In this document: in pieces, positions 1,481 through 40,488 of the stretch
How the letters are laid out: each line of letters opens with the position of its first letter
Position numbering within the stretch: the stretch's first letter is position 1
Source of the DNA: an uncultured Bacilli bacterium
GTDB lineage: Bacteria > Bacillota_I > Bacilli_A > RF39 > UBA660
Assembly (NCBI GenBank): GCA_944358775.1
Contig: CALVRU010000005.1
Location: 1 to 58,854 of the forward strand
Reading direction: 5' to 3'
Length of the DNA: 58,854 nucleotides
Translations under genes and position numbers: made by a program
The notes under the pieces: model-generated
What the model saw: only the letters and a program-made list of their open reading frames with translations
Database searches by the model: none
Told to the model about the DNA's origin: nothing

Positions 1481-3442
1481 TTAAAATTGAATATATTCTT
1501 TCGTATTATATATCTTACCGTCGATTTCTAAATAAATAGAATACTTACCAGATAGTCCTTCTTGATTGATATATCGTGTAATAACAATTCCATTTTCATT
1601 TTCTTCTTCGGTAAAAATATCCAAACATAAAGCAGTATACGGACGTTTCGTAATTCGAATCTCGTAATAATTGGCCATCAAATTTTGATACAAAATAATC
1701 TTCACATCGTTTTCTCGTTTGAATTGCCCCGTAAATACGAGACGATCTTCTTCCTTGGTAAACTTTATTTGATGACTCTGGTAATTGTCATCCGGATCCA
1801 CGGCATTATGAATCGGCCCAAATGTCCGCTTTGTAATATCTGTTTTTCCTAGGTTTCCTAATCTTTTTGCGCGACCCATCGAATAAGTGCTATCGTTATA
1901 TAAACTCATCTTCTCTACGCGATAATTATTGGTTGGTAACACAAGTTCAAAAATAACTTCATCCTGAAGAAGTTCAACCGTATCGGATACTAATCGATCA
2001 GCGCCACCAAGACCAGCCGGTTGATTGGAGTTTTTGCCATCGACATATACAATTCCACCTGAGTGAACAATATAATGCCCAGCTTCTAAATAATCGACGT
2101 CGGAAATATATGGCGAATAAAATTCACTACCCCGTTCTTTTCCATATTGCCATATTTGTTCAATCGTTTTATTTTCAGTATCGATTTTATACATTACGCC
2201 ACGCGTATAACTGCTTTCGGCAGGAACATATTCTTCTTTTTTCTTCGATTTATTGTTACCGTTATCTAAAACGAAAACATATCCTTCTGGCGTAATCATT
2301 GCCGCATGTTGACTCCATTGCCATTCAAAATCATCACCGATTGGGGTAAAGAAATATTTTTGATATTCCTCACTCCAATTGGTCGGATCCCCAATAATCC
2401 AATTTAAACTGCCATCCTCATAATTTAAATTAATCACGGCATCTTGATGCCGACCCGATAACGTAATCGAATTCGTTTTCTCGTCGTACCAAACGGAATT
2501 ATTATGAAACCAATCATAACTAGACCAGTTTTCACTTTGTCCATCTTCCATGTTTAATACGTCTTTTAAATCAAAAGTTTTTACAATTTTACCAGTATTA
2601 CGATCTAGTTCGACTATATAGTCTTCGACTGTCCCATCTTCATTATTAAAATCGTTACTTGCCACTAAAAGATTACCATTTGGTAATTCATCATAATCAT
2701 GGTGATATCCACCTGGCAAACTATATTCGACGTATATTTTACCAAGTAAATCGATTTCATATAATCCCGTCATATAATAAGGATTATTCACTAGTCTTTC
2801 GGTACTAATTAACATATGCCCGTTTGCAAGACGAGTATTATCCCATAGTGCATAATTGGATAAATACCACCGGACATCTCCATTTACGTCATACGCACAA
2901 GTATATCCTTGACTCGATGGTGTAAAAAAGTATAAATCATTCCCCAATTTTTCTTTTTGGGCCACTACTTTCGTCGGTAAAATAAAATCTTCTGGGAGGG
3001 ATTCTGTTTGAATCGAAATTGTTTTACTATGCTCCTCTCCAGATTCTGTCCGATAAGAGATGGTGATTTTATTTTCTTCTCCCGGATATAATCCATAAAT
3101 TGGCAGATAATGTTTTGTCCCTCGATCAAAGGTATTCGTATACGTTGTATTTTCATCTTTACCAGGAATAATGACCGTCGGACTTATCTCTTCTTCTGTT
3201 TCAAATAAGACAAGCGCAGTCAAAGGGGAATTATGATACGGATCTAAAATCACATTCGGTTGATCAAAGGTATATCCTTCTACTTTAAAATCCTTTTCGT
3301 ATTCTTGTTGGATCGTCACTAAACTTTTGGTTTCTATCAATTCTTTTTTATTACTCGAGTTATAATTAAGTACTCCTAAAATAACGAGTCCTGTAATTAG
3401 GATAACGCCAATAATAATCATTACTTTTTTCTTCATCTGCAA
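1481..3442 (-). CDS. Aryl-sulfate sulfotransferase (ASST family), N-terminally anchored
   Basis: N-terminal TM, PY..SPLTAL N-domain motif, YHHD..ELPNGN, DWFHNNS, SGRHQ and QHAA beta-propeller motifs. Confidence 0.88.
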   Translation of the reverse strand: MQMKKKVMIIIGVILITGLVILGVLNYNSSNKKELIETKSLVTIQQEYEKDFKVEGYTFDQPNVILDPYHNSPLTALVLFETEEEISPTVIIPGKDENTTYTNTFDRGTKHYLPIYGLYPGEENKITISYRTESGEEHSKTISIQTESLPEDFILPTKVVAQKEKLGNDLYFFTPSSQGYTCAYDVNGDVRWYLSNYALWDNTRLANGHMLISTERLVNNPYYMTGLYEIDLLGKIYVEYSLPGGYHHDYDELPNGNLLVASNDFNNEDGTVEDYIVELDRNTGKIVKTFDLKDVLNMEDGQSENWSSYDWFHNNSVWYDEKTNSITLSGRHQDAVINLNYEDGSLNWIIGDPTNWSEEYQKYFFTPIGDDFEWQWSQHAAMITPEGYVFVLDNGNNKSKKKEEYVPAESSYTRGVMYKIDTENKTIEQIWQYGKERGSEFYSPYISDVDYLEAGHYIVHSGGIVYVDGKNSNQPAGLGGADRLVSDTVELLQDEVIFELVLPTNNYRVEKMSLYNDSTYSMGRAKRLGNLGKTDITKRTFGPIHNAVDPDDNYQSHQIKFTKEEDRLVFTGQFKRENDVKIILYQNLMANYYEIRITKRPYTALCLDIFTEEENENGIVITRYINQEGLSGKYSIYLEIDGKIYNTKEYIQF

Positions 3443-36414: not shown

Positions 36415-37539
36415 ATGGATATTTATGTCGTGAAAAAAGGAGATACTCTTTATCGAATCGCACGGGAATTCGGGCTTTCAGTCAATCAGTTGATCGAAAT
36501 TAATCAACTGTCTAATCCGGATCGGTTGATAGTCGGGCAATCATTAATTATCCCTGTACGTAGACAGCCTGATATTTTAGTAAATGGCTATACTTATCCC
36601 AATATCAATCGTACTACTCTTCGTAATACTTTACCCTATTTAACTTATCTTAGTATCTTTAGTTATCAAGTGACACCCCGTGGAACGTTACGTCCGATTA
36701 ATGATGAAGCCTTGATCGAAGAAGCTTTAAATCAGCAAGTTGCACCGATGTTAGTAGTCACGAATATCGGTGAGAGTGGTCGTTTTGAAAGTGATTTGGC
36801 ACATCTTATTTTTAATGATATGGCGGTTCAAGATCAATTAGTTGAGTCGATTTTAAAGGTTCTACAAGAAAAAAATTATTATGGCGTGGACTTGGATTTC
36901 GAATATGTCTATCCGATGGATCGAGCTTTATACAATCGGTTTCTGAAACGCATGGCTGATACCCTTCATCCCCTCGGTTACACTTTAACGACTGCTTTAG
37001 CACCCAAAGTTCGCTATGATCAGCCTGGCATTTTATATGAAGCACATGATTACTATGCCCATGGTAAATATGCCGATCATGTAATATTAATGACTTATGA
37101 ATGGGGATATCGATATGGACCACCGATGGCAGTAGCCCCTATCAACCAAGTCGAGCGAGTTTTAAATTATGCCCTTACTGTTATTCCAAGTGAAAAAATT
37201 TTAATGGGCATTCCAAACTATGGATACGATTGGACACTCCCTTATCAAGAAGGAACGGCCGCGAATTCGATCTCCAATACCCAAGCTTTGGAACTAGCAA
37301 TTCAAAAAGGCGCCGAAATTCAATTTGATTCCGTCAGTCAATCTCCTTATTTTTATTATAAAGACAACGACCAGAATTTGCACGTTGTCTGGTTTGAAGA
37401 TGCCAGAAGTATTCAGGCAAAGCTTAATCTAGTCGACAAATATAAACTCGGTGGGATTAGTTTCTGGACGATCATGAATTATTTTCCACAAGGATATTGG
37501 ATACTAGATCATCAATTTACCGTTCAAAAATTAGTTTAA
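36415..37539 (+). CDS. LysM + GH18 spore cortex/germination hydrolase (YaaH/SleL-like)
   Basis: LysM YVVKKGDTL, DLDFE, LMTYEWG, GIPNYGYDW; start moved to ATG after GGGAGG. Confidence 0.9.
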   Translation: MDIYVVKKGDTLYRIAREFGLSVNQLIEINQLSNPDRLIVGQSLIIPVRRQPDILVNGYTYPNINRTTLRNTLPYLTYLSIFSYQVTPRGTLRPINDEALIEEALNQQVAPMLVVTNIGESGRFESDLAHLIFNDMAVQDQLVESILKVLQEKNYYGVDLDFEYVYPMDRALYNRFLKRMADTLHPLGYTLTTALAPKVRYDQPGILYEAHDYYAHGKYADHVILMTYEWGYRYGPPMAVAPINQVERVLNYALTVIPSEKILMGIPNYGYDWTLPYQEGTAANSISNTQALELAIQKGAEIQFDSVSQSPYFYYKDNDQNLHVVWFEDARSIQAKLNLVDKYKLGGISFWTIMNYFPQGYWILDHQFTVQKLV

Positions 37540-37571
37540 AAAAGTTTACTTTGAAAAGTAAACTTTTTTCA

Positions 37572-38588
37572 TTATTTCATTTTTTTATAAAATTGACTAC
37601 CTACTTCTTCGGTTTGTCGTTGCATTGATCCTTCATAAGTCGTAGTAATCTCACCTTCCGGAGTAAAATAATAAATTTGACAGCATTTCATGTTGGGAAA
37701 GATGCGAATTGGAATACTAGTACGAATTCCCATATGCCAATATCCTTCGTAGCCGATAGATCCCATTCCTCCAGAACAGTGAACATGATATCCTAAGCGT
37801 CCTAACGAACTACGACCACTTAACATCGGAATCAAATTTTGGGTAGTAGTCCATTCATTGGTTCTGGCAACATACATTTTATCTGGATATAAGATGGTAC
37901 CTTGATCTGAGATGGTCATTGTCTCCATTGGGTTCTTTCGCTTTAAATCCAAAATCGGTTCTTTGTAATAACTAATCTCTTTGTATAACGTGAGATTTAC
38001 AGAGTTTGGATTGATTACCACTTGATCCAGTGGGGTAATCGAAATGTCCTTTTGTTGAATTCGTCGTTTGATTTCTTCGCCACTTAACATACCGATCGTA
38101 TCGCTTTTGGTATCGAGGCTACGAAAAAAAGTGAGATTTCCGATTTCGATATTGGGGTAAATAATCGTCGGTTTGGTAGCGACAATACTTAATAATAAAT
38201 TCCCTTCAAAATGATCTTCCAAGTATCCACTCGTCAATTCGATACTGATGCCTAATAAAGATAAGGAAGTGCGACCATTGATCACTGGCACATAACCGTC
38301 TGTCATGATATGTTCTTTTGTCTTGGCAAGGTATACTTTTCTGGGCTCGAGTAACAATCCGGAAGATGGAATCGAAACTTTATGTAATGTTTGTAATTTA
38401 TCTGAAGTCAATTCACGTAAATAAGCATTTTTGTGTTTGGTATCGACAATCGTATAGTCAAAGGTATAAAGATCGCTGCCAATGCTTACGGTGGCACTAT
38501 TGGGTTTTGTTAGGGTATTTTCATTACAGGGATCGATTAAAATAGTTCCCTCTTTGATTTGTCTTTGAATTTCGTGAAGTGTAAGCAT
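37572..38588 (-). CDS. Tandem two-domain dCTP deaminase-like protein
   Basis: Two Dcd-fold repeats, the second starting MLSGEEI at 38090; domain 2 has NPNSVNL, GRSSLGRLG, CQIYY; start at ATG 38588 after AAGGAG. Confidence 0.85.
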   Translation of the reverse strand: MLTLHEIQRQIKEGTILIDPCNENTLTKPNSATVSIGSDLYTFDYTIVDTKHKNAYLRELTSDKLQTLHKVSIPSSGLLLEPRKVYLAKTKEHIMTDGYVPVINGRTSLSLLGISIELTSGYLEDHFEGNLLLSIVATKPTIIYPNIEIGNLTFFRSLDTKSDTIGMLSGEEIKRRIQQKDISITPLDQVVINPNSVNLTLYKEISYYKEPILDLKRKNPMETMTISDQGTILYPDKMYVARTNEWTTTQNLIPMLSGRSSLGRLGYHVHCSGGMGSIGYEGYWHMGIRTSIPIRIFPNMKCCQIYYFTPEGEITTTYEGSMQRQTEEVGSQFYKKMK

Positions 38589-38589
38589 A

Positions 38590-39117
38590 TTATTTCTCCT
38601 TCCTTTTGACGTATTCTTTGGCAAGACGTGATTCGGTTGGATCGATCTGACCAAAGTATTTACCGCGATATTTGATCTTATCATCGCCGATCAATGGATA
38701 ATAATAAACACGGCCGATTTCCATATTTGGATAGATGACCGTCGGATTTGAGCAAATAATTTCGAGAGTCCATGTTCCTTCAAAACCGTTATCTCCAAAA
38801 CCGGCAGTAATATGAATTTCCATTCCGAGGGTGGCGAGTTCTAATAGACCCGATAAAACTGGTACATATCCATCTGTTTTGGTATATTCATTCGTACTAC
38901 CTAAATATAATTTATTGGGTTCCAAAATGAAGCCTGTTTCGGGAATTAAAATAGTTTGACTGGGATTGGGACTGGTCGTCTCTAACAACGGTGTTTCATA
39001 TGTTTTTAACATGTTACTTAGGGTAACTGTAATATAGTTTTCGCCTATTTTGTCTTGACTCGAATCGACATAGATTCCTTGTGAAAGCCCTTCTTTTATT
39101 CCGTTTTTATTTAGCAT
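38590..39117 (-). CDS. dCTP deaminase-like protein (single domain)
   Basis: LEPNKLYLG.T.E, HITAGFGD.GFEG.WTLEI, YRGKY; the RSS motif is absent. Confidence 0.88.
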   Translation of the reverse strand: MLNKNGIKEGLSQGIYVDSSQDKIGENYITVTLSNMLKTYETPLLETTSPNPSQTILIPETGFILEPNKLYLGSTNEYTKTDGYVPVLSGLLELATLGMEIHITAGFGDNGFEGTWTLEIICSNPTVIYPNMEIGRVYYYPLIGDDKIKYRGKYFGQIDPTESRLAKEYVKRKEK

Positions 39118-39178
39118 ACTACTTCTCCTTTTTTATCCAAAAAAATAACCCCCATAAAAAGGGGGGGTAATTAATCGA

Positions 39179-39255
39179 TGGTCGGGAAGACAGGATTTGA
39201 ACCTGCAACCACCTGGTCCCAAACCAGGTGCTCTACCAAGTTGAGCCACTTCCCG
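39179..39255 (-). tRNA. tRNA-Pro(TGG)
   Basis: CCTGG-TTTGGGA-CCAGG anticodon arm. Confidence 0.97.
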
Positions 39256-39261
39256 AAAAAA

Positions 39262-39338
39262 TGGTGCGTCCGAAGGGATTCGAACCCCTGACCTTTTGGT
39301 TCGTAGCCAAACACTCTATCCAGCTGAGCTACGGACGC
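39262..39338 (-). tRNA. tRNA-Arg(ACG)
   Basis: TTTGG-CTACGAA-CCAAA anticodon arm. Confidence 0.97.
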
Positions 39339-39439
39339 AGTTATTAGGCTATTACACTTTTGGGTCAACTTTTATTGTCTCAAAGATAGCATCGTCATAA
39401 CTAGACCGTTCACTATCAATATAATATTAAAAAAATATA

Positions 39440-39515
<76 letters not shown>

Positions 39516-39520
39516 AAATA

Positions 39521-39597
39521 TGGCGGTCTCAACGAGGCTCGAACTCGCGATCTTCTGCGTGACAGGCAGACGTGTTAACCAACTGCACCATGAGACC
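39521..39597 (-). tRNA. tRNA-Asp(GTC)
   Basis: TCTGC-CTGTCAC-GCAGA anticodon arm. Confidence 0.97.
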
Positions 39598-39602
39598 AAT
39601 TT

Positions 39603-39679
39603 TGGTTGCGGGAGGAGGATTTGAACCTCCGACCTCTGGGTTATGAGCCCAACGAGCTACCGAGCTGCTCTATCCCGCG
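39603..39679 (-). tRNA. tRNA-fMet(CAT)
   Basis: C1-A72 mismatch, three G-C pairs in the anticodon stem, CAT anticodon. Confidence 0.96.
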
Positions 39680-39697
39680 ATATAATTTAAAATTAAA

Positions 39698-39789
39698 TGG
39701 CGGAGGAAAAGGGATTCGAACCCCTGCGCCGCTTACACGACCTCTCAGTTTTCAAGACTGATCCCTTCAACCGACTTGGGTATTCCTCC
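39698..39789 (-). tRNA. tRNA-Ser(TGA)
   Basis: TCAGT-CTTGAAA-ACTGA arm and long variable arm. Confidence 0.96.
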
Positions 39790-39987
39790 ATCACGTTGAT
39801 TATTATTGCCATCTTGCGACGACATATTGATTATATCATCACCTTTTTAGCAAAGTCAACCCCATAATCGAGGTTTTTTCTAATAATCTAATTATATTAT
39901 ATGTGACTTCCGTGGAATTATCATTTTCTTTCCGATTTTCGCCATTTTTTTACAAAAAAATCCTTTTACAAGGATTCTTTTCAAAGT

Positions 39988-40076
39988 TGGTGCCTAAGGC
40001 CGGACTTGAACCGGCACGGGTTTTAACACCCGCAGGATTTTAAGTCCTGTGCGTCTACCTGTTCCGCCACTCAGGC
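39988..40076 (-). tRNA. tRNA-Leu(TAA)
   Basis: CAGGA-CTTAAAA-TCCTG arm and long variable arm. Confidence 0.96.
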
Positions 40077-40080
40077 AACA

Positions 40081-40156
40081 TGGTGTCCTGTTGGAGATTC
40101 GAACTCCAGACCCTCTGATTAAAAGTCAGATGCTCTACCGACTGAGCTAACAGAAC
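40081..40156 (-). tRNA. tRNA-Lys(TTT)
   Basis: TCTGA-CTTTTAA-TCAGA anticodon arm. Confidence 0.97.
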
Positions 40157-40163
40157 ATATAAG

Positions 40164-40238
40164 TGGCTGCCTCGGCTAGATTCGAACTAGCGCATGTCAG
40201 AGTCAAAGTCTGATGCCTTACCACTTGGCTACGAGGCA
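40164..40238 (-). tRNA. tRNA-Gln(TTG)
   Basis: TCAGA-CTTTGAC-TCTGA anticodon arm. Confidence 0.97.
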
Positions 40239-40241
40239 ACG

Positions 40242-40326
40242 TGGTGGAGAGAGATGGTTTCGAACCATCGAACCCATAGGGAGCAGATTTACAGTCTGCC
40301 GCGTTTAGCCTCTTCGCTATCTCTCC
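40242..40326 (-). tRNA. tRNA-Tyr(GTA)
   Basis: GCAGA-CTGTAAA-TCTGC arm with variable arm. Confidence 0.97.
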
Positions 40327-40332
40327 AAAAAA

Positions 40333-40408
40333 TGGTGCCGAAAACAGGAATCGAACCCGTAACCTATTGATTACAAATCAATTGCTCTACCAATTGAGCT
40401 ATTTCGGC
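40333..40408 (-). tRNA. tRNA-Thr(TGT)
   Basis: ATTGA-TTTGTAA-TCAAT anticodon arm. Confidence 0.97.
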
Positions 40409-40411
40409 ACA

Positions 40412-40488
40412 TGGTGGGCGATATAGGACTCGAACCTATGACCCCCTGCTTGTAAGGCAGGTGCTCTAACCAACTGAGCTAATCGCCC
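40412..40488 (-). tRNA. tRNA-Val(TAC)
   Basis: CCTGC-CTTACAA-GCAGG anticodon arm. Confidence 0.97.

Follow-up and report, generated by a model that had tools for sequence, protein, structure and literature searches.

A predicted asymmetric dCTP deaminase divided between two adjacent genes of an uncultured Bacilli bacterium

How could a deoxycytidine triphosphate (dCTP) deaminase (Dcd) operate when no single domain of it carries a complete set of catalytic residues? The question is raised by two adjacent reverse-strand genes, here called A and BC, in a 58,854-nucleotide stretch of contig CALVRU010000005.1 (assembly GCA_944358775.1) from an uncultured Bacilli bacterium; this whole stretch is referred to as the window. 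To our knowledge, the dCTP deaminase family is known only as rings of three identical subunits. We consider it likely that the A and BC proteins join 1:1 into a pseudo-heterotrimer with one complete, dCTP-deaminating site between domain C of BC and A (the C/A site), and that this arrangement originated by triplication and complementary loss. The genes and their domains are as follows.

38590..39117, reverse strand: gene A, a single Dcd-fold domain (175 amino acids; PF22769, 69.1 bits)
37572..38588, reverse strand: gene BC, two Dcd-fold domains in one chain (338 amino acids)
38091..38588, reverse strand: domain B, BC residues 1-166, lid-less and without equivalents of Arg115 and Glu138
37572..38090, reverse strand: domain C, BC residues 167-338 and the stop, with motifs 1, 2 and 4 kept

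All three domains lie above the curated cut-off of PF22769 (DCD), which is 27 bits: A, B and C scored 69.1, 69.7 and 108.8 bits, respectively. A six-frame search of the whole genome with this profile recovered C (108.8 bits; 37665-38090), B (69.7 bits; 38121-38585) and A (69.2 bits), and found no further match in the assembly, which comprises 1.33 Mb in 65 contigs and is 91.65% complete. Against NCBIfam TIGR02274, with an equivalog cut-off of 92.8 bits, A scored 56 bits, below that mark, while the 135 bits of BC are a sum over two stretches. The profile of trimeric deoxyuridine triphosphatases (dUTPases), PF00692, gave 15.5 bits on BC and no match on A, and the C-termini are Dcd-type lids; PF06559 gave 21.2 bits on BC (E 2.9e-4), just under its cut-off of 21.4. 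By sequence, the closest solved relative of A is M. tuberculosis 2qxx (E 9.5e-12), and that of the C half of BC is B. halodurans 4xjc (E 5.3e-14). An AlphaFold2 model of BC (predicted local distance difference test, pLDDT, 91.4; predicted template-modelling score, pTM, 0.88) has the two-domain structure 2r9q as its top structural match (template-modelling (TM) scores 0.72/0.71, E 5.5e-15, 15% identity), followed by single-domain Dcd and DCD-DUT chains with target-normalised TM scores of 0.75-0.86 on single domains. Domain B carries an extra helix at about residues 50-62.

To locate the catalytic residues, we aligned A, B and C to E. coli K-12 Dcd, whose sequence was taken from the annotated genome. 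The equivalents are these.

E. coli Ser111: L92 in A, T107 in B, S260 in C
E. coli Arg115: T96 in A, L111 in B, R264 in C
E. coli Asp128: D109 in A, E124 in B, S277 in C
E. coli Glu138: E119 in A, S134 in B, G287 in C
E. coli lid Tyr171/Lys178/Gln182: Y150/K153/Q157 in A; B ends before the lid; C retains the Tyr only

In E. coli Dcd, Ser111, Arg115, Asp128, Glu138 and the lid residues Tyr171, Lys178 and Gln182 make up the catalytic set; the PDB titles 'E138A' and 'E138D variant' agree with these roles. In A, motif 3 (H102-I120, including D109 and E119) and the lid residues Y150, K153, Y154 and Q157 are retained, and motifs 1, 2 and 4 are degenerate; its strings are GENYITV, GLLELAT, HITAGFGDNGFEG, WTLE, GRVYY and YRGKY. 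C retains motif 1 (N193-S196 and N198), motif 2 (R259, S260, S261 and R264) and motif 4 (Q304), and has a remodelled motif 3, in which S277 and G287 replace the Asp and the Glu, and no lid Lys (NPNSVNL, GRSSLGRLG, GMGSIG, WHMG, CQIYY, YEGSM). B retains KPNS (residues 28-31), K/R106 and N151. A full catalytic set is absent from every single domain, and C and A are jointly complete. The initial annotation had described two coupled genes with three Dcd-fold domains, of which A keeps the Asp, the Glu and the lid, C keeps motifs 1, 2 and 4, and B has lost most of both sets. This description was borne out throughout: PF22769 matches A once and BC twice across a 1-nucleotide gap, each motif string quoted from A and C is present as written, the alignment to Ser111, Arg115 and Glu138 divides as stated, and for B it can be added that KPNS is invariant and the lid missing.

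Is this division of motifs a peculiarity of one genome? In a word-index search BC had 131 relatives and A had 473, of which the best 120 in each case were used. After removal of five long forms and of rows outside 320-370 amino acids (BC) or 165-200 amino acids (A), conservation was counted over 112 BC rows and 116 A rows, the window's own proteins included. In the A set, E119, Y150, K153, Y154 and Q157 are each present in 116/116 rows and D109 in 115/116. At the position equivalent to Ser111, the five commonest residues are E (37), D (29), L (14), T (10) and P (8), with no Ser among these, and the Arg115 equivalent is A in 46, T in 42, S in 10, I in 6 and V in 4. Conversely, N193, P194, N195, S196, N198, R259, S260, S261, R264 and Q304 of C are each found in all 112 rows, and the Glu equivalent is G in 101, A in 6, S in 4 and P in 1, with Glu in 0/112. 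In B, KPNS and N151 occur in 112 rows each, K/R106 in 109 and L111 in 102, and the Glu equivalent is S (94), T (9), N (6) or C (3). The mean top-residue fraction reaches 0.90-0.98 over the live motifs; it is 0.71-0.76 for the dead motifs of A (0.73 for A overall), 0.66-0.78 for the motifs of B (0.67 for B overall) and 0.89 for the dead motif 3 of C (0.73 for C overall). Even the most distant BC representatives, P0242 and P0244, have KPNS in B, have NPNS, GRSS and the Gln in C, and have no Glu. To judge from these alignments, the motif split is complementary and conserved across homologues, not random.

The two genes also stay together. Of 8 related loci, 7 (L005, L006, L008, L009, L010, L012 and L013) have an A orthologue immediately ahead of BC; in the eighth, L007, the contig begins inside BC. 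In L010 a 150-amino-acid open reading frame (ORF) stands upstream of A; a reading of it as a dUTPase was dropped, as no Pfam family matched. In addition, A-B-C proteins occur naturally as single chains, namely P0021 (532 amino acids), P0079 (549) and P0082 (550), together with the incomplete fusions P0088, P0040 and P0247, and G478, a species-representative genome of the window's own family, encodes an A-B-C fusion as one 553-amino-acid ORF. All of the fusions keep the live motif 3 and lid of A and the live motifs of C, and their A-B linkers measure from about 17 to 65 residues. In a quick tree of 63 BC parts, in which the split state was assigned by protein length alone, the starred branches require no fewer than three switches between the fused and the split state. 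AlphaFold2 applied to the natural fusion P0079 with a 7-row alignment gave pTM 0.80 and pLDDT 76.0, with the A-B linker (190-204) below 50.

If A and BC form one enzyme, the two intact half sites should meet in a complex. A model of BC with A, run with an author-supplied alignment for each protein, scored an interaction prediction score from aligned errors (ipSAE) of 0.92 (runs 0.91, 0.92 and 0.93), versus 0.00 for the best of 3 controls; the runs share at least 92% of contacts, and the partner pLDDT is at least 87. The model supports binding of A to BC and does not show it. On the side of BC, the segments touching A are 192-196 (C motif 1), 255-269 (C motif 2) and 300, 306 and 308-309 (around C motif 4), together with 117-126 and 132/134/136 (B motif 3) and the terminal strands. 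Motifs 1 and 2 of B (28-31 and 104-113) are outside the A interface, and of C motif 3 (272-287) residue 274 alone touches. On the side of A, contacts involve 25-28 and 89-98 (dead motifs 1 and 2), 102-112, 117, 119 and 121 (live motif 3, including E119), and the lid segments 140-150 and 153-154. Because of this list of interface segments, the sole consistent cyclic order in the model is C (motifs 1, 2, 4) against A (motif 3 and lid), A (1, 2, 4) against B (3), and B (1, 2, 4) against C (3). The asymmetric trimer with one composite C/A site that the initial annotation had proposed is supported, at the level of computation, by three independent lines: the motif pattern, synteny and fusions, and this model. 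In the 1:1 model the C half site faces A at segment level, as that annotation had predicted; in relatives, the gene pair recurs in the 7 of 8 loci and the complementary losses recur across the aligned homologues.

Alternatively, A and BC might act separately, for example A as a homotrimer and BC as an oligomer of its own, with their adjacency reflecting a shared pathway only. Characterised members of the family are known only as homo-oligomers, and BC alone resembles the solved two-domain 2r9q (TM 0.72). An A-only trimer, however, would lack the Ser/Arg/NPNS half of the site, and a C-only or BC-only assembly would lack the Glu, the Asp and the lid, although both halves are invariant; moreover, A has been fused to BC naturally and repeatedly, and the complex model passes its controls. 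We regard separate action as highly improbable.

How would the joint enzyme work? Domain content, invariant complementary motifs, synteny, fusions, the predicted interface and genomic context were computed; from these we infer that the complex is catalytic, in what ratio its chains combine in the cell, and that three-site cooperativity is absent. A and BC would assemble 1:1 in the ring architecture of the homotrimeric dCTP deaminases, in the cyclic order C to A to B to C, with the C/A cleft as the only complete active site. To this cleft, C would give the nucleotide- and phosphate-binding half, consisting of NPNS in motif 1, R259-S260-S261 and R264 in motif 2, and Q304 in motif 4. The catalytic half would come from A and consist of D109 and E119 (motif 3) and a lid, formed by Y150, K153, Y154 and Q157, that shuts over bound substrate. 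Having no Glu, the clefts between A and B and between B and C would be catalytically dead, and B would chiefly close the ring. The predicted task of the enzyme is to deaminate dCTP for thymidylate synthesis, along a route from the anaerobic ribonucleotide reductase NrdD to dCTP, then to deoxyuridine triphosphate (dUTP) or deoxyuridine monophosphate (dUMP), and on to ThyA.

In a different reading, A and BC do form the complex, but it senses or regulates nucleotides without catalysis, i.e., as a pseudoenzyme, or else its substrate is not dCTP. In its favour, only one of the three clefts is not clearly dead, an Asn stands in motif 1 where E. coli Dcd has an Asp, the A/BC pair is patchily distributed, and the dead motif 3 of C is unusually conserved for its domain (0.89 against 0.73). 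Weighed against this, the equivalents of Ser111, Arg115, Glu138, Asp128 and the lid Tyr, Lys and Gln are invariant at exactly one cleft, motif-complete single-domain relatives share the NPNS.N form of motif 1, and the genome has ThyA and no other dCTP or dCMP deaminase that we could find. We hold this reading, in either form, to be improbable. A more speculative extension of the catalytic model, which we put forward tentatively and hold to be possible at most, is that the conserved B/C cleft, with KPNS and N151 of B facing the remodelled motif 3 of C, is an allosteric nucleotide pocket, e.g., for deoxythymidine triphosphate (dTTP), that replaces three-site cooperativity, and that the complementary losses acted as a constructive-neutral-evolution ratchet into an obligate heteromer that was later split and re-fused several times. 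The initial annotation had similarly supposed that the two dead pockets may be free for regulation or another ligand; the only hints of this are the raised conservation of C motif 3 (0.89 against 0.73) and the invariance of KPNS in B.

Genomic context bears on what the enzyme may produce. The window's own genome has ThyA and NrdD; ThyX was not found in this assembly. The NrdD match (G000:C8:877-2916, reverse strand, outside the window) contains one in-frame TAG, which may stem from a sequencing error, from splitting of the gene or from read-through. A PF00383 search for a ComEB-type deoxycytidine monophosphate (dCMP) deaminase found none in this genome: of the two proteins that match PF00383, one is TadA-like (137.4 bits; model cut-off 150) and the other is a cytidine deaminase. 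Since there is neither another PF22769 match nor a ComEB, A/BC is, as far as these profiles can tell, the only dCTP- or dCMP-level deaminase found on the route to dUMP in this genome.

No dUTPase (PF00692) was found in the window's own genome, the assembly being 91.65% complete, and this leads to a version of the joint enzyme that competes with the monofunctional one only: the complex forms and is a bifunctional dCTP deaminase-dUTPase that makes dUMP directly, with no need of a separate dUTPase. The closest solved sequence relative of A is the bifunctional M. tuberculosis 2qxx (E 9.5e-12), that of C is 4xjc, whose fold-library title reads 'dCTP deaminase-dUTPase from Bacillus halodurans', and the motif-3 Asp, D109, is kept in 115/116 A homologues. 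A gene of 150 amino acids could, however, be missing from an assembly of this completeness in 65 contigs, and G238 and G378, which have the same three-domain layout, each carry a separate dUTPase. The argument for bifunctionality from the missing dUTPase is thus not sustained, and we rate the bifunctional version as a serious contender that falls somewhat short of an even chance.

How widely is the pair distributed? In a class-wide sample of 401 genomes, the three-domain layout was present in 3 (G000, G238 and G378), all of the window's own family; in a family sample of 301 genomes, full-length BC was present in 9, each of a different genus. A phylum-level sample of 399 scored genomes, largely the same families re-sampled, gave no additional carrier. 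Neither of the other two genomes of the window's genus (G259 and G642) has a BC match at E <= 1e-40, and G259 has no PF22769 match at E <= 0.001; the pair may be gained or lost at species level. In G259 (L014) a different ORF, of 252 amino acids, follows the LysM-GH18 orthologue, at a point where the contig runs out. Among 1.84 billion representatives, a profile search returned few full-length BC-type clusters (P0021, P0079, P0094, P0242 and P0244) and fragments, and below them ordinary single-domain Dcds. The named records that hold the pair are metagenome-assembled genomes labelled 'uncultured Bacilli' or 'uncultured Muribaculaceae'.

Several points weigh against the proposed heteromeric deaminase. 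Because the pair is rare and patchy (9/301 family genomes and 3/401 class genomes), the split Dcd is not a universal housekeeping solution in the lineage. The own genome has no dUTPase match at its 91.65% completeness, yet two relatives with the split enzyme have one. The conservation counts rest on the best 120 matches per search after the length filter, and they include 12 near-identical copies of the window's A. The mark for the complex score is reached by 58/80 solved complexes and by 2/110 mismatched pairs, counts that hold only roughly here, as our own alignments were used, and the model may pass through likeness to the solved homotrimers. The facing of S260/R264 and E119 was read from interface segments, not from distances, and the domain and fusion trees are quick searches on subsamples.

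From what could such a pair have arisen? The single-domain relatives P0252, P0256, P0261 and P0264 have the complete set of motifs, written in the same dialect (NPNS.N, GRSS..RLG, TAGFGD.GF.G.WTLE, CQIYY or AQL, GKYQ). In a quick maximum-likelihood domain tree, whose 85 rows comprise 22 for A, 24 each for B and C, 14 drawn from 27 motif-complete single-domain proteins and the E. coli outgroup, A, B and C each form one clade (Shimodaira-Hasegawa-like approximate likelihood ratio test, SH-aLRT, 98, 100 and 100), nested among the motif-complete single-domain Dcds. The stem of B is the longest in the tree (1.52), and A and B pair with an unstarred support of 94, a pairing that may be long-branch attraction. 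The tree fits triplication of a canonical Dcd gene, then complementary loss. In the proposed course of events, a Firmicute-type Dcd of the canonical kind would have been triplicated, and the complementary motif losses would have left partners that depend on each other.

Other arrangements with incomplete motifs were also seen. At L011, in another family of the class (G074:C1:1561500-1566500), two adjacent, overlapping genes for single-domain Dcd-like proteins lie at 2295-2837 (reverse strand, 180 amino acids) and 1805-2320 (reverse strand, 171 amino acids). The downstream copy has a Gln at the position of the catalytic Glu (FTLQL); the upstream copy has a remodelled motif 3 in which WTLE is kept. 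The same gene run also holds a nucleoside diphosphate kinase, an AIR-synthase-related protein and an FGE-sulfatase-like protein, and the pair may be a different heteromeric Dcd or part of a nucleotide-modification operon. The two-domain protein P0287 (347 amino acids) has an N-domain with motifs 1, 2 and 4 and without motif 3, and a C-domain with a motif-3-like segment and a lid and without motifs 1 and 2, i.e., a C-like then an A-like domain with no B. P0259 (175 amino acids) consists of one C-like domain by itself, with motif 3 lost. Dcds built from complementary half sites may occur more widely than in the A/BC family alone.

A search of the full-text literature, with subscription-only papers and supplements outside its scope, returned no description of a heteromeric or split Dcd, in agreement with the initial annotation, which knew of no bacterial case. 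The homotrimeric Dcd and DCD-DUT enzymes (E. coli 1xs1, M. tuberculosis 2qxx/2qlp, B. halodurans 4xjc and M. jannaschii 1ogh) have the same fold and the same catalytic residues as A/BC; they consist of three identical subunits from one gene with three sites, whereas A/BC has two genes, three different domains and one cleft predicted to be able to be active. The A. tumefaciens two-domain 'dCTP deaminase' 2r9q, of the PF06559 family, is like BC in having two Dcd-like domains in one chain. The likeness is one of fold only, with 15% identity and the PF06559 score of 21.2 bits against a cut-off of 21.4; by sequence, 2r9q gave no match to P0287 even at E <= 10, nor to BC at E <= 0.01. The literature search found no paper on 2r9q, and we know of no third-domain partner gene for it.

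Other precedents come from dUTPases. In the account of the review PMC12524310, the monomeric dUTPase of herpesviruses derives from duplication and fusion of a subunit, with motif loss in each copy and one site between two domains. This enzyme (Epstein-Barr virus (EBV) 2bsy; pseudorabies virus 8zwq) follows the same evolutionary logic as A/BC; it differs in being a dUTPase and not a deaminase, in having two domains with the third position empty, and in coming from one gene of a eukaryotic virus, and the EBV protein is a weak structural match to the BC model (TM 0.25). A passage of the same review (PMC12524310) presents the Drosophila virilis dUTPase as a single-chain pseudo-heterotrimer with three domains described as nearly identical. 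It places three domains of this fold in one ring, in a chain layout like that of the natural A-B-C fusions. Engineered covalent hybrids of human dUTPase, in which one or two sites were deliberately switched off, appear in a section of PMC4827122. Both the D. virilis enzyme and the human hybrids are dUTPases and the hybrids are man-made, whereas the asymmetry of A/BC is natural, conserved, found in a Dcd and usually split 1+2. The nearest precedents in logic are the herpesvirus and D. virilis dUTPases, and the nearest in design the human hybrids.

The same source (PMC4827122) reports, for ordinary Dcd, three equivalent sites that communicate, with cooperative inhibition by dTTP, one dTTP shutting the whole trimer. 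Questions of site communication in the related dUTPase needed engineered covalent asymmetric trimers; A/BC would be a natural asymmetric Dcd ring, available in two-chain and single-chain form, in which one can test whether cooperativity and feedback inhibition need three sites and what dead clefts serve. It also offers a clean bacterial case of paralogues made mutually dependent through complementary loss. Annotation pipelines will label A and BC each as 'dCTP deaminase', though each is predicted from its motifs to be inactive alone.

The layout of the locus concerns how the two proteins are made, and its features are as follows.

38586..38604, reverse strand: A/BC junction, with AGGAAGGAGA at 38604-38595, the TAA of A at 38592-38590, one T, and the ATG of BC at 38588-38586
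39124..39130, reverse strand: AAGGAGA ribosome-binding stretch, 6 nucleotides ahead of the ATG of A (39117-39115), by sequence reading
39149..39166, reverse strand: terminator-like hairpin and T run, between the tRNA array and gene A
39179-40488, reverse strand: 12 tRNA genes, an array directly upstream of gene A on the same strand

The longest frame of BC is 37572-38684, which opens inside gene A; the start was taken at the ATG at 38588 because M1 and L2 are invariant in 33/33 aligned homologues. A single nucleotide separates the two genes, and AGGAAGGAGA is a ribosome-binding stretch within the 3' end of gene A, ahead of BC. The spacing in L010 and L009 is likewise a 1-nucleotide gap or a 1-nucleotide overlap. 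This layout suggests translational coupling. RNA-library contigs from chicken-gut and faecal samples agree with stretches of A and of BC at an identity of at least 99%, and one contig of 229 nucleotides (38494-38722) bridges the junction, a weak hint that attests presence in the libraries and is not proof of transcription or of a single transcript; stretches without such a contig carry no meaning.

Upstream, the hairpin and T run are the only thing that separates gene A from the tRNA array, and no sigma-70-like promoter was called between this hairpin and gene A, the region having 5 promoter-like sites versus 6.8 expected, which makes this negative uninformative. The other neighbours, an S1-domain protein, a NifU-like protein, a LysM-GH18 protein, a membrane protein and a family-2 glycosyltransferase, are of housekeeping type. 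A phage-defence reading was rejected, with no PADLOC family for A or BC at E <= 0.01 and housekeeping neighbours in place of a defence island. Between the BC stop and the end of the convergent LysM-GH18 gene lies an AT-rich inverted repeat (37538-37569; AAAAAAGTTTACTTT ... AAGTAAACTTTTTT), whose G-C pairs were too few for the terminator scan to call it; it could be a two-way terminator. The tRNA genes of the array are those for Pro, Arg, Phe, Asp, Met, Ser, Leu, Lys, Gln, Tyr, Thr and Val.

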